This document shows positions 23,721 through 57,386 of a stretch of DNA of 64,000 bases, in pieces. The notes beneath the pieces are model-generated. The model did not search any database and was not told the origin of the DNA. It saw nothing but the letters and a program-made list of their open reading frames with translations. The translations under genes and the position numbers were made by a program. How positions within the stretch are numbered: position 1 is the first letter of the stretch; every line of letters starts with the position of its first letter. Source of the DNA: an uncultured Acidobacteriaceae bacterium (GTDB lineage: Bacteria > Acidobacteriota > Terriglobia > Terriglobales > Acidobacteriaceae); assembly GCA_963806985.1 (NCBI GenBank), contig CAWDZV010000003.1, positions 611,277-675,276 on the forward strand, written 5' to 3'.

Positions 23721-24687
23721 ATGAATCGCCCTGATGTCCAACTCGCCGGCATCGTTGAGCCCGACGAAAAGCCTTTCGAATCCTATGCGCAGCGCTATTA
23801 TCTCCCCGCAAGCTTGCACTTTCGCAACATTCAGGAAATGGTTGAGCATGCGCACCCTCGCGCAGTGCTGGTCTTCCGGCTCCGAGTGACCACAGGCGGG
23901 GTCATCGAGGAATCCGCCGCCCGCGTCCACGTAATGGTGGAGAAGCCGCTGACCATAAGTTATAGAGACGCGTTGGCCATCCAAGATGCGGCGCAACACG
24001 GCAAGATCCATGTGCTCGTCAACCTGGAAACATCGTGGTACGCGAGCAATTCGGAAGCTTTCCGTTTACTGAAGCAGGGCGCTCTGGGACCGATGGTAAA
24101 GACTGCCATTCGTGACGGGCATCCCGGGCCCAAACAGATCTGGGTTGGACCCGAGTTCCTCTCCTTCTTAACGGATCCGAAGCAGAACGGAGCCGCAGCT
24201 CTTTTTGACTTCGGCTGCTATGGGCCGAACCTCATGACCTGGCTGATGGATGGCGAGATGCCTTTGTCCGTAACTGCGGTTACCAAGCAATGGCAACCGG
24301 ATGTGTATCCGGAAGTGGATGACGAAGCGGAGATCATTCTCAACTCCAAAAATGCGGTCGCCATCGTTCAGGCGTCGTGGAACTGGCCTTTCAATCTGAA
24401 GCAAATGGATGTCTATGGCCGGACCGGCTATGCCAAGGCAACCGACCCCGATCGAATCGAGGTTCGAAAGGCAGAATGAGTCCGAAGGCCGGGTGATGAC
24501 GGGAACAAGACCGACCGCTCCGTATGGCGATCCGTTGCACCATATGGCTGCAGTTCTCAATGGAGAGATTCAAGAGGGGAGCGCGCCGTCCTCGCTGCAG
24601 ACTAACATGACCGTGTCAGAGATCCTGGATGCAGCGAAACAGTCCGCCCAGAGCGGCAAGACGGTAGGCTTACCCCTGGCGAAGTGA
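23721..24687 (+). pseudogene. Gfo/Idh/MocA-family oxidoreductase remnant (N-terminally truncated and frameshifted)
   Basis: The EKPL motif and C-terminal domain are recognisable, but no GxGxxG Rossmann start precedes PDVQLAGIV. The reading frame switches near 24470: ORF 23553-24479 continues as ORF 24409-24687 in another frame. Confidence 0.5.
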
Positions 24688-24844
24688 GGCTGCATCAATT
24701 CCGGGGACCGGCAATCCCATAATGTCCTTGGCAAATAAATCTTCTTCTTACGCCACCGACGGCGTGTCAATCCATATGGTCCAAACCCCTTCAAGGTGAT
24801 ATAGACTCCTTAGCTGTGTAGGAAAACAGACCGGAGTTCTTCCG

Positions 24845-26038
24845 ATGGCCTCTACCTTTTTTCGATCAGTACGATCGCTCGAAGCCGACAACTCGCAGCG
24901 TTCTTATTTGGGTCTCGCTCTGGCTGCCTGCTTGCTGGCGGCGTGGATACTGTGGTTTTTTCTAGCGCGAGTATCGGTTTACGCGGTCACGGACAAGGCC
25001 GATTTGGAAGTGGATCGGGCGGCGCATCCGGTGGAATCGGTGGTCAGCGGCCGAGTCGTGGCGACCGATATGACGCTTGACCAGGAAGTAAAGGCTGGGG
25101 ATGTTCTGGTTGAGCTTGACTCTGGTGCTCAGCAGTTTCAGCTCACTGAAGAGAAGACGCAATTAGCAGGCGCGAATCCACAAATCCGTTCCCGCGAAGA
25201 AGAGATCGTCTCGGAAGGGCAGGCGCTGGAGCAGGATCAGAAATCGGCCAAGGATGCGCTGGAGGAAGCGCGGGCGCACTACCGGGAGGCCGAGGCGGCG
25301 GCGCAATTTGCGCAAGCGGAAGCAGATCGATTGAGCAAGATGTACAACGCCGGGGTAGTGGCGGAACTGGATCTGAACCGGAGCGTCGCCGATGCACAGC
25401 AGCGCCGTGCCGCTGCGGACAGTTTGAAGTATGCGGTGGAGCGACTGGAAGGCGAGCAACGCACGCGTACCAACGAGAGACGTGCACACATCGAACAAAT
25501 GACAAGCGAACTCAACAGGCTGCGCGGCGACCAGGCTACGGCGGGCGTGACTCTGCAGCGCCTGGAAGAAGAAGTAGATCGCCGGTATATACGCGCGCCG
25601 ATTGATGGGAAGTTGGGCGAAGTGGCGCCCTTGAGGGTGGGAGCGGTGGTCCACGAAGGCGATAAACTCGCCGCCGTCATTCCGTCGGGGAAGCTGCGAG
25701 TGGTGGCGAACTTCGATCCACCAGCGGCTTTGGGGCGCATACGGCCGGGGCAGCATGCACGGCTGCGGCTGGAAGGGTTTCCGTGGGCGCAGTATGGAAG
25801 CGTAGGCGCGACCATCACTAGTGTGGCCAGCGAGATTCGCGATGGCAGCATACGAGTGGAGATGGCGATCGATCCGAATTCCTCGTCTCGTATTCCCCTG
25901 CAACACGGGCTGCCTGGGTCGGTGGAAGTTCAGATTGAAACCGTCTCGCCCGCGAATCTCGTGCTGCGTACGGCGGGAAGCTTAGTGGCCAGCCCTAAGA
26001 ACAATTTCACAAATCTCGGCGTGGTGACGGCGCGATGA
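24845..26038 (+). CDS. HlyD-family membrane fusion / secretion protein
   Basis: One N-terminal TM helix, a long coiled-coil (EEARAHYREAEAAAQFAQAEADRL...) and a C-terminal beta-barrel segment. Its stop overlaps the next start as ATGA. Confidence 0.8.
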   Translation: MASTFFRSVRSLEADNSQRSYLGLALAACLLAAWILWFFLARVSVYAVTDKADLEVDRAAHPVESVVSGRVVATDMTLDQEVKAGDVLVELDSGAQQFQLTEEKTQLAGANPQIRSREEEIVSEGQALEQDQKSAKDALEEARAHYREAEAAAQFAQAEADRLSKMYNAGVVAELDLNRSVADAQQRRAAADSLKYAVERLEGEQRTRTNERRAHIEQMTSELNRLRGDQATAGVTLQRLEEEVDRRYIRAPIDGKLGEVAPLRVGAVVHEGDKLAAVIPSGKLRVVANFDPPAALGRIRPGQHARLRLEGFPWAQYGSVGATITSVASEIRDGSIRVEMAIDPNSSSRIPLQHGLPGSVEVQIETVSPANLVLRTAGSLVASPKNNFTNLGVVTAR

Positions 26039-28797
26039 ATCTGGGCCGGCGCCGCATATTTGTTCCGGAGGTGGTGCAGACGTTGGTGATGGATTGCGGA
26101 CCGGCATCGCTGAAGTGTCTGGCGGAGGGATTCGGCATACCTGTCAGCTACGGGCGCTTGCGGGAAGCCTGCCAGACCGATGTCGATGGGACTTCGATCG
26201 ACACGATGGAAGAGGTTGCGAAGCAGTTGGGACTGGAAGCAGAACAGATTATGGCACCAGCGGATTTTGTGCTGCTTCCGGAAGCGAACCTGTTGCCCGC
26301 GATCGCAGTGGTTATTCGCGCCAGCAAGTTAACCCACTTCGTGGTCGCATGGCGGAGCCACGGCGCTCTGCTGCAAGTCATGGATCCCGCGCTAGGCCGC
26401 CAATGGGAGCCGAGGGCGCAATTTGTTTCCAGTCTTTACATCCACACGCTGCCAGTTAGCGCTCAAGGTTGGAGAGAGTGGGCGGAGTCGGAGGAGTTCA
26501 CGCTACCGGTGCGACGGAAGTTGGATGACCTGGGCATTTCGGGGAAGGCTGCGACGGGCTTGATTGAAAACGCGGTCAATGCTCCCGGCTGGCGAGGTCT
26601 GGCTCGACTCGATGCTGGTGCGCGAAGCATGGGCGCAATTGTCAGATCCGGAGGATTGCGGAGAGGAAAGGAAGCGGAGCGGGTGCTGGAACGGCTGCTC
26701 GTTTCGAGCCGGGATGAACGGAGTCAGGGTGAACGGAGTCAGGATGAACAAGCCAGCGGAAGCGCGAAAGAAGAGTACGGCGTAATCCCATCCAATTATT
26801 GGTCAGCATGGTCGGCGCCTCCCGATGAGGAAAACGGAGAGGAGCGCGTTTTCTTTAAGGGCGCGGTGCTGGTGCATGTGAAGGGACGCCGCGCCGAATC
26901 AGCGGCGGTGGAAACTGAGAAGCTTCCGCCGGAGGTGGCTGCCGCACTGCAAGAGAAGTCGAGCGAGCCTGGCCGAGAACTCCTGCGCATGCTAAAGGCG
27001 GACGGGCTCCTTGCGCCTGCGGCGGCGGTGACCGCTCTTTTTCTTGCGACCCTCGGAGTATTGATCGAGGCAGTCTTGTTTCGCAGCTTGCTCGATATGC
27101 CGCGTCAGTTCGGATTGTATGGACAGCGGCTGGGGGTGATGGCAGCCCTATTGATTTTTTTGACCGCCTTGATGCTTCTTGAGTTGCCAATCGCATCGGG
27201 CGTTCTGCGAATTGGCAGGCATCTCGAGGCGCGGCTGCGAACCACGTTTCTCGAAAAAATTCCCAAGCTCGGAGATCGATATTTTCATAGCCGCTTGACC
27301 TCCGATATGGCGGAGCGCAGTCATAGTACGCACCGCATACGGCTGCTGCCGGGATTGGGCGGTCAGGTTCTTCGTTCGACGTTTGAACTCATAGCTACGG
27401 TTGCGGGAATCATCTGGCTGGACGCTCGCCTCGCGGTGCCGGCTCTGATCGCCGCGGCGCTGGCGGTGGGCTTGCCTTTGGCCGTGCAGCCCATGCTCAC
27501 CGAAAGAGACCTCCGAGTGCGCAATCACATGGGAGCGCTGAGCCGTTTCTATCTTGACGCGTTGTTAGGTCTGGTTCCTGTACTCACGCACAGAGCCGAA
27601 CGCGCCTTGCGACGGGAACATGAAAGCTTGTTGGTGGAATGGGCTCATGCATCGTTTGGATTGCAAAGCCTGGCAGTTTGGGTCGAAGCGTTGCAGGGGT
27701 TGACTGGATTTGGCTTGGCTGCCTGGCTGATGCTCGACCACATCAGCCGCGCGGGCGAGGCCGGAGGCGCACTGCTGCTTGTCTACTGGGCGCTCAATCT
27801 GCCGGGGCTGGGTGAGGAGATTGCGCAGGTCGCGCGCCAATATCCTTCCTACCGGAACGTCACGCTTCGACTGCTGGAGCCGATTGGCGCGCTCGAAGAT
27901 GAAGGTGGCGTTGAAAGTAAGGAGAATGCAAACGAATTTGAATCAGCGCCTCGAATTGAGGATTTATCGCTGGAAGGATCCGGCGGCGCATCCATCGAGC
28001 TGACCAAAGTAAACGTGCACGCCGCAGGACACACCATTCTGGAAGAGATCAATTTAAAGATTGATCCGGGCGATCATGTGGCTATTGTTGGCGTCTCGGG
28101 TGCGGGAAAATCGAGCCTGCTGGGCCTGCTTCTGGGTTGGTATCGAGCGGCCGAGGGAAGCGTGCTGGTCGATGGTGCCGCGCTGGAGGGCGTGCATCTG
28201 GACCAGTTGCGTCAGCAGACTGCGTGGATTGATCCGGCAGTGCAGCTGTGGAATCGCTCTCTGTTTTCAAATCTCTGCTACGGCAATCCGGACGCTATGC
28301 CAACCGCAGAGTTGTTGGAACAAATTGAACTGCGCCAGTTGCTCGAAAAATTGCCGGAGGGAATGCAAACGAAACTCGGGGAAAGCGGTGGCCTGATTTC
28401 TGGTGGTGAGGGGCAGCGGGTTCGACTGGGACGCGCTCTGCTAAAACGCGGAGTGCGCCTCGCTCTGCTCGACGAACCCTTTCGGGGACTTGATCGGCAG
28501 GCGCGGCGAGAGTTGCTGGCGCGCGCCCGCCGGCACTGGGCGAGCACGACATTGTTGTGCGTCACCCACGATGTGGGCGAGACACTGACATTTCCTCGCA
28601 CGCTGGTGATTGAGAACGGACGCATTGTCGAGGATGGGAACCCGGCAGAGCTTGCTCGAAGAATGAATTCGCGTTATCGAGCGCTGCTTGAGGCGGAGGA
28701 GAGTGTGCGGGAAAGTTCGTGGTCGGGCGGCGCCTGGCGACACCTCCGGCTGGAAGGTGGCCGCCTGATCGAAGAGTTGCAACGGGCCCGGGCATGA
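26035..28797 (+). CDS. Bacteriocin-type ABC transporter with N-terminal C39 cysteine peptidase domain
   Basis: C39 residues are present (MDCGPASLKCL, HFVVAW, DP). An insert of about 190 aa precedes the TMD. Other motifs are Walker A GVSGAGKSS, signature ISGGEGQRV and Walker B LALLDEP. Confidence 0.8.
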   Translation: MNLGRRRIFVPEVVQTLVMDCGPASLKCLAEGFGIPVSYGRLREACQTDVDGTSIDTMEEVAKQLGLEAEQIMAPADFVLLPEANLLPAIAVVIRASKLTHFVVAWRSHGALLQVMDPALGRQWEPRAQFVSSLYIHTLPVSAQGWREWAESEEFTLPVRRKLDDLGISGKAATGLIENAVNAPGWRGLARLDAGARSMGAIVRSGGLRRGKEAERVLERLLVSSRDERSQGERSQDEQASGSAKEEYGVIPSNYWSAWSAPPDEENGEERVFFKGAVLVHVKGRRAESAAVETEKLPPEVAAALQEKSSEPGRELLRMLKADGLLAPAAAVTALFLATLGVLIEAVLFRSLLDMPRQFGLYGQRLGVMAALLIFLTALMLLELPIASGVLRIGRHLEARLRTTFLEKIPKLGDRYFHSRLTSDMAERSHSTHRIRLLPGLGGQVLRSTFELIATVAGIIWLDARLAVPALIAAALAVGLPLAVQPMLTERDLRVRNHMGALSRFYLDALLGLVPVLTHRAERALRREHESLLVEWAHASFGLQSLAVWVEALQGLTGFGLAAWLMLDHISRAGEAGGALLLVYWALNLPGLGEEIAQVARQYPSYRNVTLRLLEPIGALEDEGGVESKENANEFESAPRIEDLSLEGSGGASIELTKVNVHAAGHTILEEINLKIDPGDHVAIVGVSGAGKSSLLGLLLGWYRAAEGSVLVDGAALEGVHLDQLRQQTAWIDPAVQLWNRSLFSNLCYGNPDAMPTAELLEQIELRQLLEKLPEGMQTKLGESGGLISGGEGQRVRLGRALLKRGVRLALLDEPFRGLDRQARRELLARARRHWASTTLLCVTHDVGETLTFPRTLVIENGRIVEDGNPAELARRMNSRYRALLEAEESVRESSWSGGAWRHLRLEGGRLIEELQRARA

Positions 28798-28843
28798 AAA
28801 ACCCGGGCATGAAAAATGACGACGTGAAAGACGCGGGGAAAAT

Positions 28844-31054
28844 ATGAAAGAAGATTTGCCCTCGCTTTTCTGGTCGTCTTCCGAGCTAGGCTCTGGTCTC
28901 GAAGCTCTGGCACGCAAGAGCGAACTGCGGCCCTCTTCTGTGCAGGTCCCGAACCCTCCAAGCTCGGTTGCTTCGCTGGATAATACGGCCGCGAGCCGTG
29001 ATGCATTGAGCCAATGGATCGAGTCGGCGGCCAGTTGGCTGGGCTTGGAAGCAGAGCCTTCGGCTGTGCCCTACGAGGGGCTGGAGCAAGTTATAGAGAA
29101 TGCCGGATTGGCGGTGCTGCAAGTGCCAGGAGACGGTTCGGCAAAATTCCTCTTTCTTTTCCCACGACCTGTACCCCGAAAAATTTCTGCTCGAAGAAGG
29201 GGACATATATCGGTGCTTGCTCCCGATCTGCGGACGGTCTCACTGCGGCTAGACGCAGTTCGCACACTGCTCTGTAGCGCATTGGAAGAGACGGTCGCGC
29301 CGGAAGTTGACCGCCTGCTCGACGATGCCGGCATTCCCGAGTCGCGACGTGGGGATGCGCGGGCGGCACTCTTGCTCGAACGTCTGAGGGGCAAGGACGT
29401 GGGCGGCTGCTGGCTGCTTCGTCAGTCACCGGGTGCTCCGTTTTGGAGCCAGGCAAATCGAGCCCACTTGCCGAGACGTTTGGGCACGCTACTGGCGGCC
29501 CATGCAGCCGAATATTTTCTGTTGGTTGTTTCCTGGTGGCTTATCGGGCGTGCTGCGCTTTCAGGACATCTGGACCATGGCTGGTTGCTGGCATGGGCGC
29601 TGATTCTGCTAACCCTGGTTCCTTTTCGAGTATTGAGCACGTGGTTGCAGGGCGTGCTGGCGATCAACGGCGGAATTCTCTTCAAACAGCGACTTCTCTT
29701 TGGCGCACTTCGACTGAGACCCGAGGAAATCCGGCACAAGGGTGTAGGGCAGTTTCTGGGCGAGGTCATGGAGTCGGAAGCCGTCGAGTCACTGGCGCTA
29801 AGTGTCGGGTTTCAGGGCTTGACGGGAGCCATCGAATTGATTGCCGCGGAATTCGTTCTCTCGCGAGGCGTGGGGCGCGGGCTGGAGCTGATTTTATTAC
29901 CGGCGTGGTTTGCGCTTACGCTGCTGCTCGGCGTCCGTTATTTTCGGCAACGGCAGCGGTGGACGGAATCGCGGCTCTCGATGACCAACGATCTGACCGA
30001 ACGAATGGTCGGGCATCGCACACGCCTCGCTCAGGAAGCTCGCCAGAACTGGCACGATGGTGAAGATGAGGAACTGGAGCGCTACCTGGAGATGTCGAGA
30101 AAGATGGACGGCGCGGCCGCGCTGCTTATGGCTCTCGCTCCGCGCGGCTGGCTGCTGCTCGGGATGCTTGGTTTGACCGGAGCATTTGCCGCCAGCCAAG
30201 GTCTAAACATTAGACTCGCAATTTCTCTTGGCGGAATCCTGCTGGCGTATCGCGCGCTGAAAAGACTTTCCTTAGGCCTGATTGCTCTCGCCGACGCTAT
30301 TATTTCGTGGCAACAGGTTGCTCCACTGTTTCAGGCAGCGGGCAGAACGCAATTGCAGGGGTCTCCCGCAGTCGCTCTTACGCCTGCCGCTGGCGAGGAT
30401 GACGTCCGAAACGATGCCGTCAGAAATGCTGAGCGCGGAAACCAGGCGGTGATGGAGGCTCACGATCTTGTTTTTCGCTATCAGGAGCGGGGCGAGCCAG
30501 TGTTGAAAGGATGCAGCCTGAGGGTTTGTCCCGGCGACAGGCTTCTGTTGGAGGGGTCGTCGGGCGGAGGTAAATCCACATTGGCGTCGCTGCTTGTCGG
30601 CTTACGAGTGCCGCAATCAGGCCTGCTCTTGCTTCGTGGGCTGGACCGGCAAACGCTTGGTGACGAAGGCTGGCGTCAGCGCGTTGTCTCCGCGCCCCAA
30701 TTCCATGAGAACCATGTGCTCACAGAAACCTTCGCCTTCAACCTTTTAATGGGCCGCCGCTGGCCGCCGCACGAAGAGGATATGCGGGAAGCGTCGGCGA
30801 TTTGCCGCGAACTCGGTCTTGAGCCCCTGCTCAGCAAGATGCCGGCGGGAATGTTGCAAATGGTTGGGGAGACAGGCTGGCAGCTCTCGCACGGGGAACG
30901 CAGCCGGGTTTACATCGCCCGGGCGCTGCTCCAGCGCGCGGAGGTGGTGATTTTCGACGAGAGCTTTGCCGCGCTCGATCCGGAAAATGTTAAGCTGGCA
31001 CTCGGCTGTGTGCTGCGCCGGGCGCGGACTTTGCTCGTGGTGGCACATCCGTGA
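28844..31054 (+). CDS. ABC transporter permease/ATPase without peptidase residues (second subunit of the exporter)
   Basis: Has a 200-aa N-terminal domain of unknown type, then a TMD. Motifs are Walker A GSSGGGKST, signature LSHGERSRV and Walker B VVIFDES. Confidence 0.75.
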   Translation: MKEDLPSLFWSSSELGSGLEALARKSELRPSSVQVPNPPSSVASLDNTAASRDALSQWIESAASWLGLEAEPSAVPYEGLEQVIENAGLAVLQVPGDGSAKFLFLFPRPVPRKISARRRGHISVLAPDLRTVSLRLDAVRTLLCSALEETVAPEVDRLLDDAGIPESRRGDARAALLLERLRGKDVGGCWLLRQSPGAPFWSQANRAHLPRRLGTLLAAHAAEYFLLVVSWWLIGRAALSGHLDHGWLLAWALILLTLVPFRVLSTWLQGVLAINGGILFKQRLLFGALRLRPEEIRHKGVGQFLGEVMESEAVESLALSVGFQGLTGAIELIAAEFVLSRGVGRGLELILLPAWFALTLLLGVRYFRQRQRWTESRLSMTNDLTERMVGHRTRLAQEARQNWHDGEDEELERYLEMSRKMDGAAALLMALAPRGWLLLGMLGLTGAFAASQGLNIRLAISLGGILLAYRALKRLSLGLIALADAIISWQQVAPLFQAAGRTQLQGSPAVALTPAAGEDDVRNDAVRNAERGNQAVMEAHDLVFRYQERGEPVLKGCSLRVCPGDRLLLEGSSGGGKSTLASLLVGLRVPQSGLLLLRGLDRQTLGDEGWRQRVVSAPQFHENHVLTETFAFNLLMGRRWPPHEEDMREASAICRELGLEPLLSKMPAGMLQMVGETGWQLSHGERSRVYIARALLQRAEVVIFDESFAALDPENVKLALGCVLRRARTLLVVAHP

Positions 31055-31144
31055 GAGCTTTCTTCAAAAGTAGATTAGAATTGCAGCCCTCACAGGTTGG
31101 CCGTTAAGAGGCTATCTAAAGACGTTTATCCAAGAGGTTCAAAC

Positions 31145-33721
31145 ATGGTCGGCAAGACACTTCGCTCCTATCGCATTGAGTCGAAACTCGGTGCCGGTGG
31201 AATGGGTGTCGTTTATAAGGCCGTGGACTCGCGCCTCGACCGGATGGCCGCCATCAAGGTGCTGGTCGCCTCCGCAGTCAGCGCCGACCGGGAAAAACGA
31301 TTCACTCAGGAAGCTAAGACTGCATCTTCGCTGAACCACGCGAACATCGTCACCATCTATGACATCGACACACAGGAGATAGATGGCAAGCCGGTTCACT
31401 ACATCGCCATGGAGTACGTGGCCGGCGAAACGCTCGATCATTTGATCGGGCGCAAAGGGCTGCGCGTGCGTACCGCGCTGAAGTATGCGGCGCAGATTGC
31501 CGATGCGCTGGCCGCTGCACACGCCGCAGGCATCGTCCACCGCGATCTGAAGCCCTCGAATGTGATGGTGACGCCGCAAGAGGTGGTGAAGGTTCTTGAT
31601 TTCGGCCTGGCCAAGTTGAACGAAGAGACCGAAGCCGATGCTTTTGCGGAAACGATCCATGGCGATGGCGCTCCTCTTACGGAAGAGGGGACGATTCTTG
31701 GCACGGTCGCCTATATGTCGCCGGAGCAGGCGGAAGGCAAGAAAGTTGATGCCCGTTCGGACATTTTTTCGTTCGGCTCGATGCTTTACGAAATGCTGAC
31801 AGGGCAGCGTGCCTTCACGGGCGGGTCTAAACTGGCGTCTCTTTCGGCAGTCTTGCATCAGGAGCCGCAACCTGCTTCGCAGACGGTTGCAGACCTTCCG
31901 CCGGAATTGGAACGGATCATCGCGCGGTGCATGAAGAAGGACCCAGCGCGCCGATGGCAGAGCATGGCCGACGTGAAGGTCGCTTTGGAGGAGTTGCGGG
32001 AGGAGACGGAATCAAGCAGCGTCGACCAAACGAGACCCAGTTTAGCGACTGGGGGAAAGCGTACGGCGCTCCCGGCCAAACGCTGGCTGGTCCTAGCCGT
32101 TGTGGGTCTGCTTCTGGTGGGACTTGTCGTTGGTGCATACTCGGCGCGAAGGTACTTGCGCGCAGAGCCACTCACGTTCCAACGGGTAACCTTTCGGCGA
32201 GGCGACGTCACGGCAGCGAGGTTTGGTCCGGGCGATGAAATTATTTATAGCGCCAAGTGGGACGGAGGTCCATCGACGCTATTCTCCACCCAGCCGGGAA
32301 ATCGTGAAGCCCGGCCGTTAGGCCTTCCGACGAGTCAGATTTTAGCAATCTCCCACACCGGCGAAATGGCGATTCTGCTGGGCGATGAAGATATAGGGAC
32401 ACTGGCGCGTGTGCCCTTCAGCGGAGGCGCGCCTCGTGAAATGCTGGAGAATGTCAGCGGGGCGGACTGGAGTCCCAGTGGAGACACATTGGCGGTGGTG
32501 CGATCGATCAGGGGAAAAAATCGGCTCGAATATCCCATAGGGACTGTGCTGTATGAAAACGATGCGCGCCCGCCACTTGCGCCACGAGTGTCCGCCGACG
32601 GCAAACTTGTGGCTTTTTTCGACTTCGATGTGGAGGTGGGAGATTACTCGTTATGCGTGGTTGGTTCTAATCGGCCGAAGCAGGTTCTTTCCCGGGGATG
32701 GCGGACGGTGAGTCACTCGCTGAGTTGGTCTCCGAGCGGAGATGAGATCTGGTTTGCCGCCGGCCAGCCGGGCAGCGATCCCGCGCTCTACGCGGTGACT
32801 CTTTCAGGCAAGCAGCGGCTTCTGGCTCAGACTCCTGGCGTGATTGTGATGCAGGATTTGGCCGCCGATGGCCGCGTGCTGCTGAGCACGGTCAACTCTC
32901 GACTTGGCATTCGTTATGTCGACTTCGAACATTCCACCGAGCGCGATCTCGCATGGCTGGACGCTTCCATGCTCTTTGAGATGTCCAATGACGGGAAGAG
33001 CCTGGTGTTTGTGGAGCTCTCTTACGGCGAAGGGCGCAATGCAGCAATCTATTTGCGTAAGACCGATGGGTCCCCCGCGGTAAGACTGGGGTATGGCAAC
33101 CGGCCTTCGCTCTCGCCGGATGGAAAGTGGGTAGTGTGCATCCGTCGCGATGCCGCGCGCGCACGCTTGATGCTGCTGCCGACGGGGCCGGGGGAATCGC
33201 GCTTTCTGAACGTCGAGGGAGTGTACTTCGAGTCGCTCGGGTGGTTCCCGGATAGCAAGCGGGTTGTCTTTACCGGGAATGAGCAGGGACATCCGGTTCG
33301 GACGTGGATCTACGATCTGGACTCCGACAAAGCCACGCCACTTACGACGGAGGGGACGAGAGGCGGCCCAGTTTCTCCGGACGGCCGCTGGTTCGTGATT
33401 GCCGATGTGCATCAGTTATCGCTCGCGCCGGTTACGGGGGGAGCGCCGCGCAAGATAGCCCAGTTGCAGAATGGCGAGGAGGTGGTGAGGTGGAGCGGGG
33501 ATGGACGCTATCTTTTTCTGCGGCAGCCGGAAGAGGATACAGAGAAGATCAGCCGGCTCGAGGTCGCCAATGGGCGCAAAGAACCCTGGCGGACGCTGAA
33601 GGTTCCCGAGCCGGGCGCCGAATTTCTAGGACTCCTCGCACTGTCGGAGGATGGGAAGGAATGCGCTTTCTCCTTTCAGCATGATCTGGCTAACCTCTAT
33701 CTGGTAAAGGGACTGCAGTGA
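31145..33721 (+). CDS. Hanks-type Ser/Thr protein kinase with one TM helix and a periplasmic TolB-like (PD40) beta-propeller
   Basis: Kinase motifs are GAGGMGVVYKA, HRDLKPSN, DFGLA and TVAYMSPEQ. The TM helix is WLVLAVVGLLLVGLVVGAY. Repeated SPDGK/SADGK/SGDGR PD40-like blocks follow. Confidence 0.85.
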   Translation: MVGKTLRSYRIESKLGAGGMGVVYKAVDSRLDRMAAIKVLVASAVSADREKRFTQEAKTASSLNHANIVTIYDIDTQEIDGKPVHYIAMEYVAGETLDHLIGRKGLRVRTALKYAAQIADALAAAHAAGIVHRDLKPSNVMVTPQEVVKVLDFGLAKLNEETEADAFAETIHGDGAPLTEEGTILGTVAYMSPEQAEGKKVDARSDIFSFGSMLYEMLTGQRAFTGGSKLASLSAVLHQEPQPASQTVADLPPELERIIARCMKKDPARRWQSMADVKVALEELREETESSSVDQTRPSLATGGKRTALPAKRWLVLAVVGLLLVGLVVGAYSARRYLRAEPLTFQRVTFRRGDVTAARFGPGDEIIYSAKWDGGPSTLFSTQPGNREARPLGLPTSQILAISHTGEMAILLGDEDIGTLARVPFSGGAPREMLENVSGADWSPSGDTLAVVRSIRGKNRLEYPIGTVLYENDARPPLAPRVSADGKLVAFFDFDVEVGDYSLCVVGSNRPKQVLSRGWRTVSHSLSWSPSGDEIWFAAGQPGSDPALYAVTLSGKQRLLAQTPGVIVMQDLAADGRVLLSTVNSRLGIRYVDFEHSTERDLAWLDASMLFEMSNDGKSLVFVELSYGEGRNAAIYLRKTDGSPAVRLGYGNRPSLSPDGKWVVCIRRDAARARLMLLPTGPGESRFLNVEGVYFESLGWFPDSKRVVFTGNEQGHPVRTWIYDLDSDKATPLTTEGTRGGPVSPDGRWFVIADVHQLSLAPVTGGAPRKIAQLQNGEEVVRWSGDGRYLFLRQPEEDTEKISRLEVANGRKEPWRTLKVPEPGAEFLGLLALSEDGKECAFSFQHDLANLYLVKGLQ

Positions 33722-33817
33722 GTCATGAATCAATGAAAGCGGTGCGTTCTCGCGCAGCCAGAGATATGCTCGCCGCAGCGGGGCGAGGACGCCCGGCGCT
33801 CCATTGCGGGAGTCGGT

Positions 33818-35770
33818 TTATGCGCGACGCTGGCGCTTGGGCGTGAGATTCAGGGTCCGGATCAGACGGAACAGATGGTTGGGATGCACGCCGAGGATGC
33901 CAGCCGCGTCCGTATAGTTGCCATCGGCCTGCTCGATCGCCTGCTCGATGAGTTTCTTCTTGGCCTCGCGGATGCCGTCGTGCAGCGCCGTAATTGGCTC
34001 GCCGGAAGAAGATGCTGTTTCTTCCAGGATCGAATCGGGCAGGTCTTCGGGCAGGATCAATTCCGTCGAACCCAATACCACCGCTCGTTCGATGGCATTT
34101 TCGAGTTCGCGCACGTTGCCCGGCCAAGGATAGCGCAGCAGGCAGGCCCGCGCCTTCGGAGATATGCCGGCGACGCGGCGCTTTACTCTTTCGCTATAGC
34201 GAGCCGTGAAGAAGGCTGCCAGCATCGGGATATCTTCGGTACGTTCCCGCAAGGGAGGAATCTTGATGGAGACCACGTTGAGCCGGTAATAAAGGTCTTG
34301 CCGAAATTTTCCGTTGCGTGACGCTTCGTTGAGGTCCACATTGGTGGCGGTAATCAGCCGGATATCGAGTTTAATTGGGCGCGTGCCGCCTACGCGTTCG
34401 AACTCGCGCTCCTGCAAAACCCGCAATAGCTTGGCTTGCAGGGAATGGGCGAGCTCGCCGATCTCATCGAGAAACACTGTGCCACCCTCGGCGGTTTCCA
34501 GCTTTCCTTTTTTCTGGCCAACGGCGCCGGTGAATGCCCCTTTCTCGTGGCCAAAGAGTTCACTCTCCAGCAGAGTATCGACTATAGCCGCACAATTGAT
34601 GGCCACAAATGGCCGGTCGGCACGGCCGCTGTTGCTATGAATGGCACGGGCAACCAGTTCTTTTCCCGTGCCGCTCTCGCCATGGATGAGGATGGTCGAT
34701 TCGCGCGGCGCCACCCGCGAGACAAACTGATAGACCTCGCGCATGGGCTGGCTTTCGCCAACCATGCTGTGTTGTATGTTAAGTTCCTGCTGCAGGCGGC
34801 GATTCTCATCTCCGAGCCGTTCCAGGTGGCTCGCGTTTTCGATCGCGAGCGCGGCCACGTTTCCGAGCGCGGTCACCAATTGCAACAGAGCCGAATCGAA
34901 AGGAGCGGCGTGCGAAGTGGTATCCAGATAGAGCGCGCCCAGGATTTTGTCCTGCACCTCGAGTGGAACGGCTAGCACGGCATGCACCTGAGGTTCGATC
35001 AGGCTCTCCGCCACACGAAACGCCTCGTCGCCTGGAACATCGTTGCAGAGCACCGCCAGATTCTCTTTGATGACCTGGTTCAGAATTGTTTGGCTGACTT
35101 GAATCGGTTGATTCGGGCCCAGTCGCCGGTCCCAACCGACTACGGAGGTGAATCCTTCAGCTCCCTCTTCGGTCAACAGTATGGCGGCTCGGTCGGCGGA
35201 AGAGATTTCGAGGACCGCTTCCAGGGCTTTCTGCTGAAGCGCAGCTAAGCCACGGACCGAGTTCAGACTGGTGCTGAAGTTGAGAAGAACGTTCAAATCG
35301 CGAACCGTGCGCTCGGTGGCCCCCAGCGTGCGGAGCCGTGCGGGCTGCAGATAAATGGCATCCTGCTTGCGCAATATCACTGTGGCTCCGCCGGGCGTTG
35401 GGGCGGAATTAAACTCCACCGAGGAATTATCGTGAGAATTTTCCAGAGACAAACCCTGGAATACCAAAATTGATTTACCGATCCGTATCTGGTCGCCGTT
35501 CGTCAGCCGTCTCTCTTTGACGGGCACATCGTTCACGAAAGTACTATTTCTGCTGTCCAAATCCTCGAGCAGAAAGCCTTCGCCGTCCCTGCGAATCACG
35601 CAATGCCGCCGCGATGCCAGCGAGTCCAGCAGCGAAATCTGGTTGGAGGGATCACGACCGATCGATAATTCATCGTCGGTGAGGGGAAAAGTTCGGCCAT
35701 GGAGTGGTCCAGCCACTGCTTCGAGCCGGGCAGGGCTCGAGGAAACCCCCTCTGAATCGTGATTTGTCAC
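33818..35770 (-). CDS. Sigma54-dependent enhancer-binding protein with FHA-GAF-AAA+-HTH architecture
   Basis: The FHA block is [23 protein letters not shown]...NSTFVN, followed by a GAF segment. AAA+ motifs are GESGTGKE and the sigma54-contact GAFTGA. A C-terminal Fis-type HTH is present. The start is GTG. Confidence 0.85.
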
Positions 35771-35799
35771 TCGATGAGTATACCAACCGTCGATTTCGT

Positions 35800-35820
35800 G
35801 CGCTTTCTAACATAGATGCG
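35800..35820. promoter_or_regulatory. Candidate upstream activator site, box 1 (GCGCTTTCTAACATAGATGCG)
   Basis: A 21-nt box about 140 bp upstream of sigma54 promoter 1. It matches a box at 36496-36516 about 150 bp upstream of promoter 2 at 18 of 21 positions. Confidence 0.4.
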
Positions 35821-35949
35821 TGATCGCGAAGCGGAAGCGCTAGGTTTTCACGAATAGAGCGGCGCTCACCAAAGAACCGACCATCGTTTTCTCCCGTGGT
35901 TTCAATAAGAAAAACAGACGATGCCAGGAAGGAACTCAGTGGTTACTTT

Positions 35950-35965
35950 TGGCACACAGCTTGCA
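35950..35965 (+). promoter_or_regulatory. Sigma54 (-24/-12) promoter 1
   Basis: The sequence TGGCACacagcTTGCA matches TGGCAC-N5-TTGCW exactly. It is divergent from the EBP gene and lies about 65 nt upstream of micro-ORF 1. Confidence 0.8.
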
Positions 35966-36028
35966 TTACTTAAGTGCGTTACCGCAACTTGAAAGGCCAA
36001 ACAAAGTCCGAAAGAAAGGAGCACTCCG

Positions 36029-36079
36029 ATGAAAGTCAAGACGAACATGAAGGCTGGCAGCGCACTGTGGGGCAGCTAG
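36029..36079 (+). CDS. Micro-ORF 1, 16 aa: MKVKTNMKAGSALWGS
   Basis: AAGGAG lies 7 nt upstream of the ATG and the stop is TAG. It is one of five conserved copies whose differences are mostly synonymous. Confidence 0.65.
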   Translation: MKVKTNMKAGSALWGS

Positions 36080-36148
36080 AAGTCCGAAAAGATCGACCAT
36101 TAAACAAAGGCTTTAGGAAGCGAAAATCTCAGGAAAGGAGCAACCCCT

Positions 36149-36199
36149 ATGAAGGTTAAAACGAATGCAAGAGCGGGCAACGCGTTGTGGGGCGGCTAA
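36149..36199 (+). CDS. Micro-ORF 2, 16 aa: MKVKTNARAGNALWGG
   Basis: AAGGAG SD, ATG start and TAA stop. Against micro-ORF 1 it shows 7 synonymous and 4 conservative replacement differences. Confidence 0.65.
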   Translation: MKVKTNARAGNALWGG

Positions 36200-36267
36200 T
36201 GCTGAAAGTTTTTTTAAACAATCGAAAACTGACAGGCTCATTTAAGAACTCGCTAGCAACAAGAGAA

Positions 36268-36341
36268 GGACGCTCCAAAGGTTGGTGAACACTGGGCTTC
36301 GCAATACCCAGCATCGCCTTTTGGAGTGTCCTCTATTTTTT
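36268..36341 (+). terminator. Probable intrinsic terminator of micro-ORF module 1
   Basis: ggacgctccaaagg pairs with ccttttggagtgtcc and encloses the inner hairpin ctgggc..cccag. The tract tctaTTTTTTg follows. Confidence 0.55.
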
Positions 36342-36495
36342 GCTGCTCTAACGTTCTAACGGGTGCCATTCGAGCGAACTTATCTTCGTGGCCAAAGTCA
36401 CCCATAAGAGATCCCAAGGGTGTCTCGTTCCCCTAGCAGCCCGCCTTTCAGGGTGGTCTGGCTGCGCGCGGCGAGCGCAAGCAACCAGCGGTCTC

Positions 36496-36516
36496 GCGCT
36501 ACCTAACATAAATGCG
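36496..36516. promoter_or_regulatory. Candidate upstream activator site, box 2 (GCGCTACCTAACATAAATGCG)
   Basis: Matches box 1 and occupies a comparable position relative to sigma54 promoter 2. Extra TCTAAC/GTTAGA words occur at about 36345-36362, 36534-36540 and 36634-36640. Confidence 0.4.
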
Positions 36517-36656
36517 AGTTCAGCAAGCCGAATTGTTAGATCGTCTGGCGAGGGGGGACGATGAAGGCCAGAGGCTGAGTAGCCTGACGCTGTGTATCTC
36601 TTTTGTTTTCAATGCGGGAGCAGGTGTCGATATTGTTAGAAACCCGCTGTTACTTT

Positions 36657-36672
36657 TGGCACACCGCATGCA
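36657..36672 (+). promoter_or_regulatory. Sigma54 (-24/-12) promoter 2
   Basis: The sequence is TGGCACaccgcATGCA, with the same GG-to-GC spacing as promoter 1. The flanks are conserved (ttacttt upstream and ttact downstream). Confidence 0.75.
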
Positions 36673-36732
36673 TTACTAAAGTGCATGAAGGCAAGTGGAA
36701 AACAAAAAAATTCAGAAGAAAGGAGCAATCCG

Positions 36733-36783
36733 ATGAAAGTCAAGACGAACATGAAGGCCGGCAGCGCACTGTGGGGCAGCTAA
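36733..36783 (+). CDS. Micro-ORF 3, 16 aa: MKVKTNMKAGSALWGS
   Basis: AAGGAG SD, ATG start and TAA stop. It differs from micro-ORF 1 by one synonymous change (GCT to GCC). Confidence 0.65.
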   Translation: MKVKTNMKAGSALWGS

Positions 36784-36860
36784 TTCAAGGGTTCCCAAAA
36801 ACCGTGAATTGAGTTTAGAAGCAACTGAGCACGGAAAAATCCCACGAAAGGAGCAATCCG

Positions 36861-36911
36861 ATGAAAGTCAAGACGAACATGAAGGCTGGCAGCGCACTGT
36901 GGGGCAGCTAA
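36861..36911 (+). CDS. Micro-ORF 4, 16 aa: MKVKTNMKAGSALWGS
   Basis: AAGGAG SD, ATG start and TAA stop. Its coding sequence is identical to micro-ORF 1. Confidence 0.65.
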   Translation: MKVKTNMKAGSALWGS

Positions 36912-36993
36912 CTTAACAGTTTATAACGAGTTGATAGCTAGAGAAACAGGCAGCGAAGCGATCTAACAAATCCCCGGATAAGGAGCCAGTCCA

Positions 36994-37044
36994 ATGAAAG
37001 TTAAGACGAACACGAAAGCGGGCAACGCATTGTGGGGGAGCTAA
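36994..37044 (+). CDS. Micro-ORF 5, 16 aa: MKVKTNTKAGNALWGS
   Basis: AAGGAG SD, ATG start and TAA stop. Against micro-ORF 1 it shows 5 synonymous and 2 replacement differences. Confidence 0.65.
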   Translation: MKVKTNTKAGNALWGS

Positions 37045-37117
37045 GTTCAACGGCTTACCTGAACCGAACAAAATCAGTATCGCGTATCGAGAAGTTTCAA
37101 GAATTAGAAGCATAAGG

Positions 37118-37180
37118 GTGCTTCAAAGGTTAAAACTGGGCTTCGAACACCCAGCGTCCCCCCTTCGGAGCATCTTTTTG
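37118..37180 (+). terminator. Probable intrinsic terminator of micro-ORF module 2
   Basis: Homologous to 36268-36341, with the inner hairpin ctgggcttcgaacacccag, the outer arm cccttcggagcat, and then cTTTTTg. Confidence 0.5.
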
Positions 37181-37372
37181 CTTGATGGCCGACCCCGTCC
37201 TCACTGAGCATCCCTGTCGCGATGTCCAATTCAGCGCGATTCTGAAAACCACAACTGCCAAGTCCCACGGCGTTCGCCGAATCTCGTTCCTGGCTGCGGC
37301 GGTTTGAGATCCGGAATGGGCGATCTTTGTCCTGATTATCTTCGGCGTGATCCCGTTTAGCATTACAGAGGT

Positions 37373-57280: not shown

Positions 57281-57386
57281 GTCAGGCATCGGTTCCGCGC
57301 GACGTTTTCCCGCCAACCCCGCCAGGTCCGGAAGGAAGCAACGGTAACGGGCTCTTTCGTGTGCAGTGGAGCACCGGTGCCTGGCT
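57281..57386 (+). ncRNA. ffs: Signal recognition particle RNA (small 4.5S type)
   Basis: Contains the universally conserved domain IV core CCAGGTCCGGAAGGAAGCAACGGTAA. The 5' caggcatcggttcc pairs with the 3' ggagcaccggtgcctg. A T-run follows at 57386-57391. Confidence 0.85.

Follow-up and report, generated by a model that had tools for sequence, protein, structure and literature searches.

Most of the described systems closest to the locus considered here couple a C39-type peptidase to an ABC transporter (PCAT), and differ in their substrates and in the proteins that accompany the pump. The NHLP/Nif11 bacteriocin export module consists of a HlyD-like adaptor (TIGR03794), an ABC protein with a peptidase (TIGR03796) and an ABC protein without one (TIGR03797), and its precursors, of roughly 80-100 aa, occur in paralogous arrays that are often adjacent to the transporter (Haft et al. 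2010, PMC2887384). In the Gram-positive double-glycine pheromone systems (ComC-ComAB-ComDE and BlpC-BlpAB-BlpHR), a small precursor with a leader of about 24 aa ending in Gly-Gly is processed and exported by a PCAT to give a product of 17 aa or more, and the peptide gene, exporter, membrane histidine kinase and response regulator are clustered. PatS of Nostoc is a 13-17-aa morphogen precursor that is thought to be processed to a C-terminal penta- to octapeptide signal in a Gram-negative, and HetC is a PCAT with active C39 residues and an additional N-terminal cyclic-nucleotide-binding domain, although its substrate is still unproven (PMC10986499). The structurally defined leader recognition of PCAT1-CtA and LahT150 uses hydrophobic residues at -4, -7 and -12 and needs at least 13 leader residues (PMC6363468). 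Finally, in multi-core precursors such as cyanobactin PatE and yeast alpha-factor, variable cores alternate with a repeated recognition or spacer sequence.

Architecture of the exporter

We analyzed a stretch of 64,000 nucleotides (hereafter the window) from an uncultured Acidobacteriaceae bacterium (GCA_963806985.1, contig CAWDZV010000003.1, positions 611,277 to 675,276 of the forward strand). A sequence-only reading had singled out a three-gene exporter at 24845-31054 in it, and the observation itself holds at every sequence-level point. The components are as follows:

24845..26038 (+). HlyD-type membrane-fusion (periplasmic adaptor) protein (MFP), 397 aa.
26035..28797 (+). Peptidase-C39 ABC transporter, 920 aa; C39 domain at residues 13-132, family-specific insert at 133-322, TMD from residue 323, NBD at 650-880.
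26431..27000 (+). Insert domain between C39 and TMD: a predicted helical bundle (residues 143-235) plus a beta-hairpin (258-285), with the DERSQGERSQDEQ stretch as a variable linker inside it.
28844..31054 (+). Second ABC half-transporter, 736 aa, with a degenerate C39-like N-terminal domain, an LSHGE signature motif and an end exactly at the H-loop (AHP*).

Pfam searches recovered HlyD_3 and Biotin_lipoyl_2 in the adaptor, Peptidase_C39 (69.4 bits against a cut-off of 22), ABC_membrane and ABC_tran in the second protein, and only ABC_tran in the third; the stop of the first gene overlaps the start of the next as ATGA at 26035-26038. The residues Gln15, Cys21, His101 and Asp117 align with the catalytic residues of PCAT1 and ComA, and are invariant in 19 peptide-linked homologues. 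An AF2 model of residues 1-325 (pLDDT 91.6) confirms the C39 fold, with Foldseek matching this part to ComA PEP at TM 0.80, and to LahT150 and PCAT1. The TMD begins at residue 323, which corresponds to residue 162 of PCAT1, so that about 160-190 extra residues lie between it and the C39 domain. This insert is gap-free in the 19 homologues except for residues 221-250, the DERSQ low-complexity stretch, and has 566 representatives at 50% clustering with E<=1e-3, nearly always at residues ~115-330 of the full-length (~850-950 aa) proteins listed. No Pfam family reaches its cut-off in the insert, and no PDB match extends beyond the C39 part. In the second ABC protein, hhalign matches residues 59-135 to C39 residues 58-126 with a probability of 86%, with the catalytic His replaced by Lys, and the LSHGE(R/K)SR signature and the AHP* end are conserved in 44 of 46 homologues.

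Thus, the trio has the three-part architecture of the NHLP/Nif11 module, as the sequence-only reading had claimed, along with its intact C39 residues and unusual insert. However, membership of the NHLM families is not supported, as the three NCBIfam scores are far below the equivalog cut-offs (39 vs 156, 156 vs 853, and 106 vs 709); type_I_hlyD, EmrA and NHLM_micro_HlyD all score below their cut-offs for the adaptor. The locus further departs from that module in the insert, in the H-loop end and LSHGE signature of the partner ABC, in substrates of 12-25 aa with a 10-aa leader, and in the absence of TOMM or lanthionine enzymes. Consistent with the earlier reading, no typical RiPP modification enzyme lies between 19 and 43 kb, where the Pfam hits include only a generic methyltransferase, a sulfotransferase and a PLP decarboxylase; likewise, no NHLP/Nif11-type precursor was seen, albeit without a scan of the small ORFs of the whole window with those models.

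Micro-ORFs and their regulatory neighborhood

The interpretation offered by the sequence-only reading is only partly supported, and its coordinates are too narrow. The system runs to about 37190, and between the exporter and the peptides lie a receptor kinase, a sigma-54 activator and sigma-54 promoter elements that it had missed:

31097..33721 (+). Receptor-type Ser/Thr protein kinase (STK) with a cytoplasmic kinase domain, one TM helix (residues 331-349) and an extracytoplasmic PD40/TolB-like beta-propeller; the likely true start is the ATG at 31145.
33818..35770 (-). FHA-GAF-AAA+ sigma-54 enhancer-binding protein (EBP) with an HTH_8 domain, divergent from the peptide genes.
35806..35845 (.). 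Candidate upstream activator site 1 (left arm CTAACA; right arm degenerate).
35950..35965 (+). Sigma-54 promoter 1 (TGGCACACAGCTTGCA), 79 nt before the first micro-ORF ATG.
36029..36079 (+). Micro-ORF 1, MKVKTNMKAG|SALWGS, with an AAAGGAG Shine-Dalgarno sequence 8 nt upstream.
36149..36199 (+). Micro-ORF 2, MKVKTNARAG|NALWGG, with mostly synonymous differences from copy 1.
36264..36342 (+). Terminator-like hairpin with a U-run after cluster 1 (-36.6 kcal/mol, z = -5.2).
36502..36541 (.). Candidate upstream activator site 2 (CCTAACA ... TGTTAG).
36657..36672 (+). Sigma-54 promoter 2 (TGGCACACCGCATGCA, one mismatch), part of a 53-nt repeat shared with promoter 1.
36733..36783 (+). Micro-ORF 3, MKVKTNMKAG|SALWGS.
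36861..36911 (+). Micro-ORF 4, MKVKTNMKAG|SALWGS.
36994..37044 (+). Micro-ORF 5, MKVKTNTKAG|NALWGS.
37108..37183 (+). Hairpin after cluster 2 (-31.8 kcal/mol, z = -3.6), sharing the 18-nt repeat D4 with the first hairpin.

The five 16-codon ORFs thus lie 5 kb downstream of the exporter. To examine whether the two belong together, a co-occurrence test that the earlier reading had itself suggested, we scanned genomes for the N-terminal pattern MK[VI]K[TS]NxKAG and recovered at least 120 stretches, against about 2 expected by chance for a 39-bit pattern in 1.2e12 positions; 60 of the 80 listed are Acidobacteriota. The recurrent neighbors are ABC proteins (40 loci), MFPs (34), sigma-54 EBPs (24) and STKs (22), with no recurrent modifying enzyme. 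In 20 of 47 loci with 16-mers of the same class (the W class, with an invariant Trp14), these lie 24-507 nt upstream of the MFP gene of homologues of this trio, on the same strand. Conversely, a metagenome scan anchored on the exporter gave 117 leader matches in 922 kb, against 0 in the reversed-sequence control, and 24 of 34 loci of 12 kb or more carry such peptides. In contrast, 5 of these 34 long loci have no peptide gene within 10 kb, and many peptide arrays are orphans. The co-occurrence is positive in both directions and across phyla, and close relatives keep the exact layout of the window. Precursors in paralogous arrays that are often adjacent to the transporter are a feature shared with the NHLP/Nif11 module. 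This matches the option of a new substrate logic, which the sequence-only reading had listed beside export of uncleaved micro-peptides and substrates encoded elsewhere.

Several lines of evidence indicate that the micro-ORFs are translated: 201 of 215 distinct family members have a Shine-Dalgarno core, against an 11% background, their third-codon positions vary while the residues stay fixed, and the ORF length is fixed at 16 codons. Across 281 distinct family members the constant element is the N-terminal 10-mer ending in Ala-Gly, whose positions are near-invariant; this conservation is partly built in by the search patterns, but position 7 is hydrophobic even though the search left it unconstrained. 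Positions 11 onward are hypervariable, spanning 2-60 aa. Moreover, 27 multi-module precursors repeat KVKTxVKAG before each variable segment, and one related locus (L101) places CAVWGG between KAG and the NHNET linker. This alternation (…NHNQTxxRGLKVKTxVKAG…) parallels PatE and alpha-factor, although here no PatA/PatG-type or Kex2-type protease is present, the repeated element is the same tag that begins the single-core peptides, and the window itself has only single-core genes. No Pfam or NCBIfam model and no paper was found for these peptides.

As for regulation, promoter 1 is an exact match to the consensus, and the same element sits at -74 to -98 in orthologous loci. The two promoters occupy equivalent positions, and the inverted repeat CCTAACA-N~24-TGTTAGG is conserved about 110-190 nt upstream of the -24 element in 15 distinct promoter regions. 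The exporter operon itself has no sigma-54 promoter. The EBP shows Pfam FHA, GAF, Sigma54_activat (242 bits), AAA_lid_14 and HTH_8 domains, with the GAFTGA loop and Walker A present. The kinase (Pfam Pkinase, 175 bits, and PD40; TM helix by hydropathy) begins 43 nt after the stop of the second ABC gene, a position kept in the orthologous loci L002, L021, L065, L072, L129 and L132-134. In unrelated lineages, peptide arrays pair with receptor STKs plus STK-adjacent ECF sigma factors, and such sigma factors are known to be activated by STPK phosphorylation (PMC8999054). Nevertheless, STKs and EBPs are abundant in Acidobacteria, and part of their linkage could be chance or inherited synteny.

A proposed leader-dependent secretion and signaling system

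We propose, with a probability of roughly 0.6, that the trio is a dedicated secretion machine for a widespread and so far unnamed family of micro-peptides, comprising a periplasmic adaptor and a probably heterodimeric ABC exporter with an active C39 peptidase in one subunit and a dead C39-like domain in the other. In this view, the five micro-ORFs encode its substrates, their first ten residues, MK(V/I)K(T/S)N-x-KAG, act as a minimal leader that the exporter recognizes, and the C39 domain most likely cuts after Ala9-Gly10, to release the C-terminal hexapeptide (SALWGS, NALWGG or NALWGS) outside the cell. The two sigma-54 promoters would be controlled by the adjacent EBP, which is most likely switched by the neighboring STK, with phospho-threonine read by the FHA domain. 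Together, these components would give a peptide-signaling loop, possibly autoinducing. The gene content, catalytic residues, promoters, family-wide leader/core structure and reciprocal co-occurrence are shown by our analysis, whereas the cleavage site and export, the heterodimer, the link from kinase to activator, and the sensing of the peptide by the kinase are inferences from sequence.

The Gly at -1 and hydrophobic residue at -4 of the candidate leader fit the C39 binding mode described for LahT150 (PMC6363468), and the C39 fold and catalytic residues are shared with it and PCAT1. However, the leader has Ala-Gly rather than Gly-Gly/Ala/Ser at -2/-1 and Lys rather than a hydrophobic residue at -7, and at 10 aa it is shorter than the 13-residue minimal substrate tested for LahT150. 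Some family cores are only 2-4 aa long (RI, HRK, RRR, IQIR), making it questionable that the released fragment is the active part in those cases, and cleavage after every KAG in multi-module precursors would leave the next leader attached to internal cores. The clustering of peptide genes, exporter, sensor kinase and activator, with the peptide genes apparently under the control of that activator, recalls the Com and Blp systems, but the host is a diderm with an MFP, the leader and the predicted product of about 6 aa are shorter, the sensor is a Hanks-type STK with a beta-propeller ectodomain, and the activator is an FHA-GAF sigma-54 EBP. With PatS/HetC the locus shares a tiny gene product and a PCAT with a non-canonical extra domain; yet here this domain is an insert placed after the C39 domain, and PatS has no MKxKTNxKAG leader, tandem arrays, second ABC or STK/sigma-54 circuit.

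Other readings of the peptides appear less likely. That the exporter moves the 13-25-aa peptides out whole, with the 10-mer serving only as an address tag or being itself the functional part, and the C39 domain acting as a receptor or cutting something else, is suggested by the deviations of the leader, the very small cores, and the tendency of the conserved part to be the functional one in non-leader peptides. We consider this unlikely because the invariant catalytic residues argue for real proteolysis, Gly10 is invariant, and the tag recurs internally as cleavage/recognition sites do in multi-core precursors. Even less probable is the earlier proposal that the terminal WGG/WGS is the cleavage motif with no cargo beyond it, in which case the 16-mers would be leader-only peptides acting as decoys or regulators of the C39 domain, or the true substrates would be encoded elsewhere. 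The C-terminal Phi-W-G-(S/A/G/T) of the W class does resemble a double-glycine motif (hydrophobic at -4, Gly at -2, small residue at -1), WGG is followed by further residues in L101 and another related locus (L174), and the rest of this genome was beyond inspection; hence, this reading is not strictly excluded. Yet it is not supported: most family members end quite differently (…PRWIGR, …AAILD, IQIR, …DPNG) while keeping the same 10-mer and exporter, the last residue of W-class peptides varies widely (A, S, T, G, Q, K, I, V, C, N, L, D), and no NHLP/Nif11-like precursor was seen near any of about 200 related loci. The most doubtful alternative is that the micro-ORFs are unrelated cis-regulatory upstream ORFs, repeats or an sRNA locus. 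Their distance of 5 kb here, and the occurrence elsewhere of a micro-ORF about 100 nt upstream of the MFP gene that could pass for a regulatory uORF, are outweighed by arrays of up to 9 copies on either side and either strand with their own promoters and terminators, by protein-level selection and strong Shine-Dalgarno sequences, by the lack of an Rfam match, and by the reciprocal co-occurrence.

With respect to the fate of the product, the leader/core architecture, multi-copy arrays, hypervariable cores, invariant Trp14 and occasional Cys-rich cores (as in the related locus L022) are reminiscent of RiPPs, and modification of the core by enzymes encoded elsewhere would not exclude the export model; however, it seems improbable, as no modifying-enzyme family recurs in about 120 loci, the genes flanking the system differ in orthologous loci, and a 10-aa leader leaves little room for a second recognition element. 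Somewhat more credible, though still unlikely, is that the peptides are weapons or public goods (very small bacteriocin-like, or metal- or surface-active peptides), with the kinase and activator merely regulating their production in response to other cues: PCATs commonly export bacteriocins, hypervariable multi-copy cores are also typical of competition loci, and the GAF domain of the EBP suggests an additional intracellular input. Against this, cores of 2-13 aa are shorter than known unmodified bacteriocins, no immunity-like gene recurs, and receptor-type STKs repeatedly pair with individual peptide arrays. One related locus (L155) has four full-length receptor-type STK genes, a fifth partial STK ORF at the contig end, and peptide arrays around one exporter, a pattern that looks like ligand-receptor pairing. 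The recurrence of the ten-residue tag beside the same kind of pump in many soil bacteria points to an undescribed family of very small secreted peptides that may be signals read by neighboring receptor kinases.

Gene content of the locus and its micro-ORFs

The locus comprises a trio of co-directional exporter genes, two putative regulatory genes and two clusters of micro-ORFs, each cluster with its own candidate promoter:

24845-26038, HlyD-type adaptor, co-directional with the next two genes
26035-28797, 920-aa ABC protein with an N-terminal Peptidase_C39 domain
28844-31054, 736-aa ABC protein without a recognizable peptidase
31097-33721, Ser/Thr protein kinase with one transmembrane helix (residues 331-349) and a C-terminal PD40/TolB-like beta-propeller
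33818-35770, minus strand, FHA-GAF-AAA+ sigma-54 activator with a GAFTGA loop and an HTH_8 domain
35950, sigma-54 -24/-12 element, TGGCACACAGCTTGCA
36657, sigma-54 -24/-12 element, TGGCACACCGCATGCA
36029-37044, five 16-codon ORFs, MKVKTN(M/A/T)(K/R)AG(S/N)ALWG(S/G), in two clusters

The first two genes overlap in ATGA, and the second displays the organization of a peptidase-containing ABC transporter (PCAT/AMS), viz., a C39 domain (Pfam, 69.4 bits against a cut-off of 22) followed by a type I exporter TMD and NBD. In alignments with PCAT1 and ComA, Gln15, Cys21, His101 and Asp117 of the C39 domain match the catalytic residues, and they are invariant in 19 homologues drawn from peptide-linked loci. 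The transmembrane domain starts at residue 323, which aligns with PCAT1 residue 162. The insert of roughly 190 aa recognized in the sequence-only reading is therefore real; it is conserved without gaps in the family, and only the DERSQ-rich stretch (about 221-250) is variable. Thus, what that reading observed in the sequence is confirmed. However, it ended the system at 31054, whereas the next two genes also matter: the kinase has a receptor-kinase topology, and the activator is accompanied by sigma-54 elements in front of the micro-ORFs.

These elements, of which the first matches the -24 GG/-12 GC consensus (TGGCAC-N5-TTGCW) exactly and the second with one mismatch, lie about 79 nt before the first ATG of each micro-ORF cluster. 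While the number of consensus matches in the window is not by itself above chance (3 against 2.5 expected), the two sites lie inside a 53-nt repeat, are conserved at the same distance in orthologous loci, and sit about 110-190 nt downstream of a conserved inverted repeat, CCTAACA-N~24-TGTTAGG, which is a plausible activator-binding site. The evidence lies in their position and conservation. Each cluster ends in a strong hairpin. A scan of 24300-37400 for sigma-70 promoters found none. In other clades, a pattern for the -24/-12 element (TGG[CT]A-N7-8-TGC[ATC]) found no such promoter upstream of the micro-ORFs that directly precede the exporter, indicating that the sigma-54 control is clade-specific.

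The micro-ORFs show the marks of genes. The five copies differ mostly at synonymous positions. Across the family, 201 of 215 distinct micro-ORFs have a Shine-Dalgarno core 4-18 nt upstream, against 11% for random 15-mers from the same loci. In 90 distinct 16-codon ORFs, the codons for Gly10, Trp14 and Gly15 keep the residue while the third base varies, and the stop codon is always at codon 17. An Rfam search of the whole window and a permissive search of 35700-37400 found no RNA family at the micro-ORFs. Elsewhere, the former recovered two tandem Acido-Lenti-1 sRNA matches (RF01687; 46.5 and 50.1 bits against a gathering score of 37) at 58823-58868 and 58889-58934 (+), just upstream of the ORF at 58988-60397, and a bacterial small SRP RNA at 57286-57383 (+), both of which fit an acidobacterial origin for the window.

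Co-occurrence of the micro-peptides and the exporter

To test the proposal that the micro-ORFs and this exporter co-occur, we approached the association from both sides. A back-translated pattern for MK[VI]K[TS]NxKAG, run against one genome per GTDB species, recovered at least 120 stretches, against about 2 that we calculate to be expected by chance. Of the 80 stretches listed, 60 are from Acidobacteriota, and the rest come from Myxococcota, Pirellulaceae, Anaerolineae, Verrucomicrobiota and a few Proteobacteria. Clustering of all neighboring ORFs gave four recurrent families and nothing else of note: ABC exporters (40 loci), HlyD-type adaptors (34), sigma-54 activators (24) and Ser/Thr kinases (22). 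In 20 of 47 loci with 16-mers of the window's class (xxΦWGx after KAG), the micro-ORFs lie 24-507 nt upstream of the adaptor gene on the same strand, and that gene belongs to a trio 40-55% identical to that of the window. This is the classical arrangement of a structural gene followed by its transporter.

Conversely, a metagenome scan anchored on the C39-ABC protein returned 80 loci, which hold 117 leader matches in 922 kb, against 0 in the reversed sequences. Of the 34 loci of at least 12 kb, 24 carry micro-ORFs. Among the ten without, four are cut off where the array is expected or within the exporter itself, and one (L200 in our numbering of related loci, denoted by L below) has a divergent form, the only one recovered with relaxed leader patterns and a search for paralogous small ORFs. 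The remaining five (L152, L158, L164, L169 and L203), whose trios are 51-59% identical to that of the window, have neither leader-bearing micro-ORFs nor any other obvious precursor within 10 kb, and their substrates are presumably encoded elsewhere. Close relatives keep the exact order seen in the window, namely trio, kinase, activator, promoter and array. We regard the link between peptide and exporter as established at the level that genomics can give.

In close relatives (L002, at 17826-17882 on the minus strand, L015, L021, L065 and L072), a sixth peptide type with the same leader, MKVKSN(L/V)KAGQS(S/T)(A/V)A(I/V)LD, sits between the kinase and activator genes, and in at least some of them (L002, L065, L072 and L021) a sigma-54-like element lies 60-170 nt upstream of it. 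It is absent from the window, where that gap is only 96 nt.

The predicted leader and core, and the transport machinery

Among 281 distinct peptides, residues 1-10 are near-invariant (M, K, V/I/T, K, T/S, N, Φ, K, A, G), whereas from residue 11 on no residue exceeds about 25%. Position 7 was left free in the DNA pattern and is nevertheless V/I/L/T in 97% of the 176 peptides from the genome scan. Thr (125) or Ser (48) occupies position 5 in 173 of these 176 leaders, but as the search patterns constrained this position to T/S/A, its conservation is largely built in. The C-terminal parts fall into many classes: xxΦWGx, xGxxxDPxG, LNPQPLPP…, SYRVxGxxGGF, Cys-rich cores and cores of only 2-4 residues. 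Twenty-seven members (e.g., in L009, L017, L025, L030, L043, L046, L097, L101 and L166) are multi-module, with the form M[KVKTxVKAG]-core-NHN(Q/E)TxxRGL[KVKTxVKAG]-core…. One of them, in L101, places CAVWGG between KAG and the NHNET linker, which ties the window's hexapeptide to a discrete module. The NHNQT element could be a second processing site, an N-x-T sequon or part of the product; if the C39 domain cuts after every KAG, internal cores would keep this linker plus the next leader.

The conserved leader and hypervariable core, the invariant Gly10, the hydrophobic residue at -4 and the invariant catalytic residues together make cleavage after Ala9-Gly10 the most economical reading. For peptides such as MKVKTNMKAGSALWGS and its paralogs in the window, the product would be SALWGS (three genes), NALWGG or NALWGS. 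The proposed leader differs in part from canonical double-glycine leaders, which have G-G/A/S at -2/-1 and hydrophobic residues at -4, -7 and -12: it has V/I/L/T at -4, but A-G at -2/-1 and Lys at -7, and is only 10 aa long. Hence, cleavage here is an inference from sequence.

The three proteins share with the NHLP/Nif11 bacteriocin export module (TIGR03794/03796/03797) the complement and order of an HlyD-like adaptor, an ABC protein with a C39 peptidase and an ABC protein without it. However, their scores are far below the curated equivalog cut-offs (39.0 vs 156.2, 156.1 vs 853.3 and 105.7 vs 709.4 bits, respectively), and CydC/CydD and generic type I models score as well or better. In our view, the system works like that module (PMC2887384) but is not a member of it. 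No NHLP (TIGR03793) or Nif11-type (TIGR03798) precursor was seen next to the trio, either here or in about 200 related loci, where the adjacent small genes are MKxKTNxKAG micro-peptides.

An AF2 model of the full 920-aa C39-ABC protein from a shallow alignment was unusable (pLDDT 47), but one of residues 1-325 built on a 66-sequence alignment is confident (pLDDT 91.6, pTM 0.88). Its C39 part superposes on the peptidase domains of ComA (TM 0.80), LahT150 and PCAT1 (TM up to 0.80, rmsd about 2 Å). The insert is predicted to form a helical bundle (143-235) and a beta-hairpin (258-285), for which a Foldseek search returned no PDB match beyond the C39 part. Neither the insert nor the N-terminus of the second ABC protein reaches the cut-off of any Pfam family. 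The insert defines a subfamily, with 566 cluster representatives at 50% identity with E<=1e-3; in the full-length ~850-950-aa proteins listed, the match nearly always falls at residues ~115-330.

In the second ABC protein, N-terminal residues 59-135 match the C-terminal half of the C39 domain (hhalign probability 86%), with the catalytic His replaced by Lys. Its signature motif is LSHGE(R/K)SR instead of LSGGQ, and it and 44 of 46 homologues end exactly at the H-loop (…VVAHP*), thus lacking the roughly 75 C-terminal residues present in the C39-ABC partner. Their conserved co-occurrence and these complementary oddities suggest an obligate heterodimer with one live and one dead peptidase domain and asymmetric ATP sites, though this too is an inference.

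Regulatory context and possible roles

No modifying enzyme recurs next to the peptides, in contrast to what is expected of a RiPP biosynthetic gene cluster. The genes flanking the system in the window encode a sulfotransferase, a flippase-like protein, a phosphoesterase, an oxidoreductase, a pseudouridine synthase, a NUDIX protein, a decarboxylase, a methyltransferase and an M28 peptidase, and they are not kept in orthologous loci. These include the phospholipase-C-like phosphoesterase with a DUF11 repeat at 21805-23661 (-), which lies upstream and is preceded by the sulfotransferase and polysaccharide-flippase-like genes.

What does recur, in several distinct architectures, are receptor-type Ser/Thr kinases and kinase-responsive transcription factors. 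The clade of the window combines a PD40-bearing kinase with an FHA-GAF activator and sigma-54 promoters. A clade with MKTKTN leaders has kinase-TM-TPR or kinase-TM-PD40 proteins encoded divergently or in tandem with individual peptide arrays. One contig of this kind (L155, metagenome contig Ga0208188_1000438, 1-20487) carries four full-length receptor-type kinase genes (TM plus PD40 or TPR ectodomain) among separate arrays around a single exporter trio, and a fifth, partial ORF (243 aa), provisionally a Ser/Thr kinase, at the contig end; the layout looks like multiple ligand/receptor pairs sharing one exporter. Blastocatellia-like loci have an ECF sigma factor (PF07638) and a Ser/Thr kinase divergent from the peptide gene. 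Operons of an ECF sigma factor (PF07638) and a TPR-bearing kinase, an alternative to the FHA-activator/sigma-54 arrangement of the window, lie next to micro-peptide genes divergently in L022, L030 and L092 and convergently in L009; ECF sigma factors encoded next to STPKs are known to be activated by phosphorylation (PMC8999054). A further clade has a GAF-only activator and no kinase.

This repeated pairing, the receptor topology of the kinases and the placement of the activator's target promoters directly in front of the peptide genes resemble a ligand/receptor-kinase/autoinduction loop. It would be analogous in logic to ComC-ComAB-ComDE but built from different parts, as the candidate sensor is a Hanks-type Ser/Thr kinase and the candidate regulator an FHA-GAF activator rather than a histidine kinase and a response regulator. 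However, acidobacterial genomes are rich in Ser/Thr kinases and sigma-54 activators, the loop is suggested by gene arrangement alone, and the same layout would also serve the regulated production of a competition factor. The sequence-only reading took the terminal WGG/WGS as the cleavage motif, with no cargo beyond it; this does not fit the family, as other classes end in unrelated sequences but keep the same N-terminus and exporter, and the last residue of the W class is itself variable. Nevertheless, Φ-W-G-(small) does resemble a double-glycine motif, and this alternative keeps a small probability. An attenuator-type upstream-ORF function and a type I toxin were considered and set aside, the latter because the peptides are hydrophilic. 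Phosphorylation of leader Thr5 as an FHA ligand is suggested by a phospho-acceptor next to a kinase and an FHA protein, but with Ser in 27% of members it was likewise set aside and remains pure speculation.

Taken together, the interpretation offered from the sequence alone is partly supported: the link between exporter and micro-peptides holds, but neither the absence of cargo with a terminal GG nor membership in the NHLP-type families does. The gene content, the conserved catalytic residues and promoters, the leader/core pattern and the two-way co-occurrence rest on direct sequence evidence, whereas cleavage and its coupling to export, the heterodimer, and activation of the peptide promoters through the kinase are inferred. 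We consider it very likely that the micro-peptides are the substrates of the exporter and assign a probability of about 0.6 to their being cut after Gly10, while we rate a peptide-sensing loop formed by the kinase and activator at somewhat below even odds. More speculatively, and less likely than not, Acidobacteria, and some Myxococcota, Planctomycetota and others, may possess a previously unrecognized peptide-pheromone system. In this view, genes of 12-25 codons would encode a 10-residue leader plus a hypervariable core of 2-13 residues, which a heterodimeric PCAT with one live and one dead peptidase domain would cut and export. Single-pass receptor Ser/Thr kinases would sense the core outside the cell and relay to sigma-54 activators through FHA domains, or to ECF sigma factors, to re-induce the peptide genes, a eukaryote-like ligand/receptor-kinase logic for bacterial cell-cell signaling.

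Leader-directed peptide export by a PCAT with an adaptor is known; what is new is the micro-precursor family with a 10-residue Ala-Gly leader, the insert-bearing PCAT with its degenerate partner, and the coupling to receptor Ser/Thr kinases and sigma-54 or ECF regulators. Pfam and NCBIfam scans of longer family peptides and of a concatenated 16-mer gave no meaningful hit. The longer forms, unlike the 16-mers, which are too short for such a look-up, have at least 1,367 relatives in the protein collection; none carries an informative name (nearly all are 'hypothetical protein' or unnamed), and essentially none has a Pfam domain. Thus, gene callers and family databases miss an abundant class of genes. 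Within the open-access literature, to which our searches were confined such that description elsewhere cannot be excluded, the leader strings occur in no paper and searches on the concept found no description of the family.

Peptide-based communication is textbook for Gram-positive bacteria but almost unknown in diderm soil phyla, and how Acidobacteria communicate is essentially undescribed. This locus offers a concrete candidate system, with predicted hexapeptides, a defined protease/exporter, defined promoters and a candidate receptor kinase. It would push the lower limit for leader-directed PCAT substrates to a 10-residue leader, and it delineates a PCAT subfamily with a new insert domain and an inferred obligate, degenerate partner. 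More generally, it offers a natural ligand candidate for the very large and mostly orphan families of bacterial receptor Ser/Thr kinases and FHA-type sigma-54 activators.
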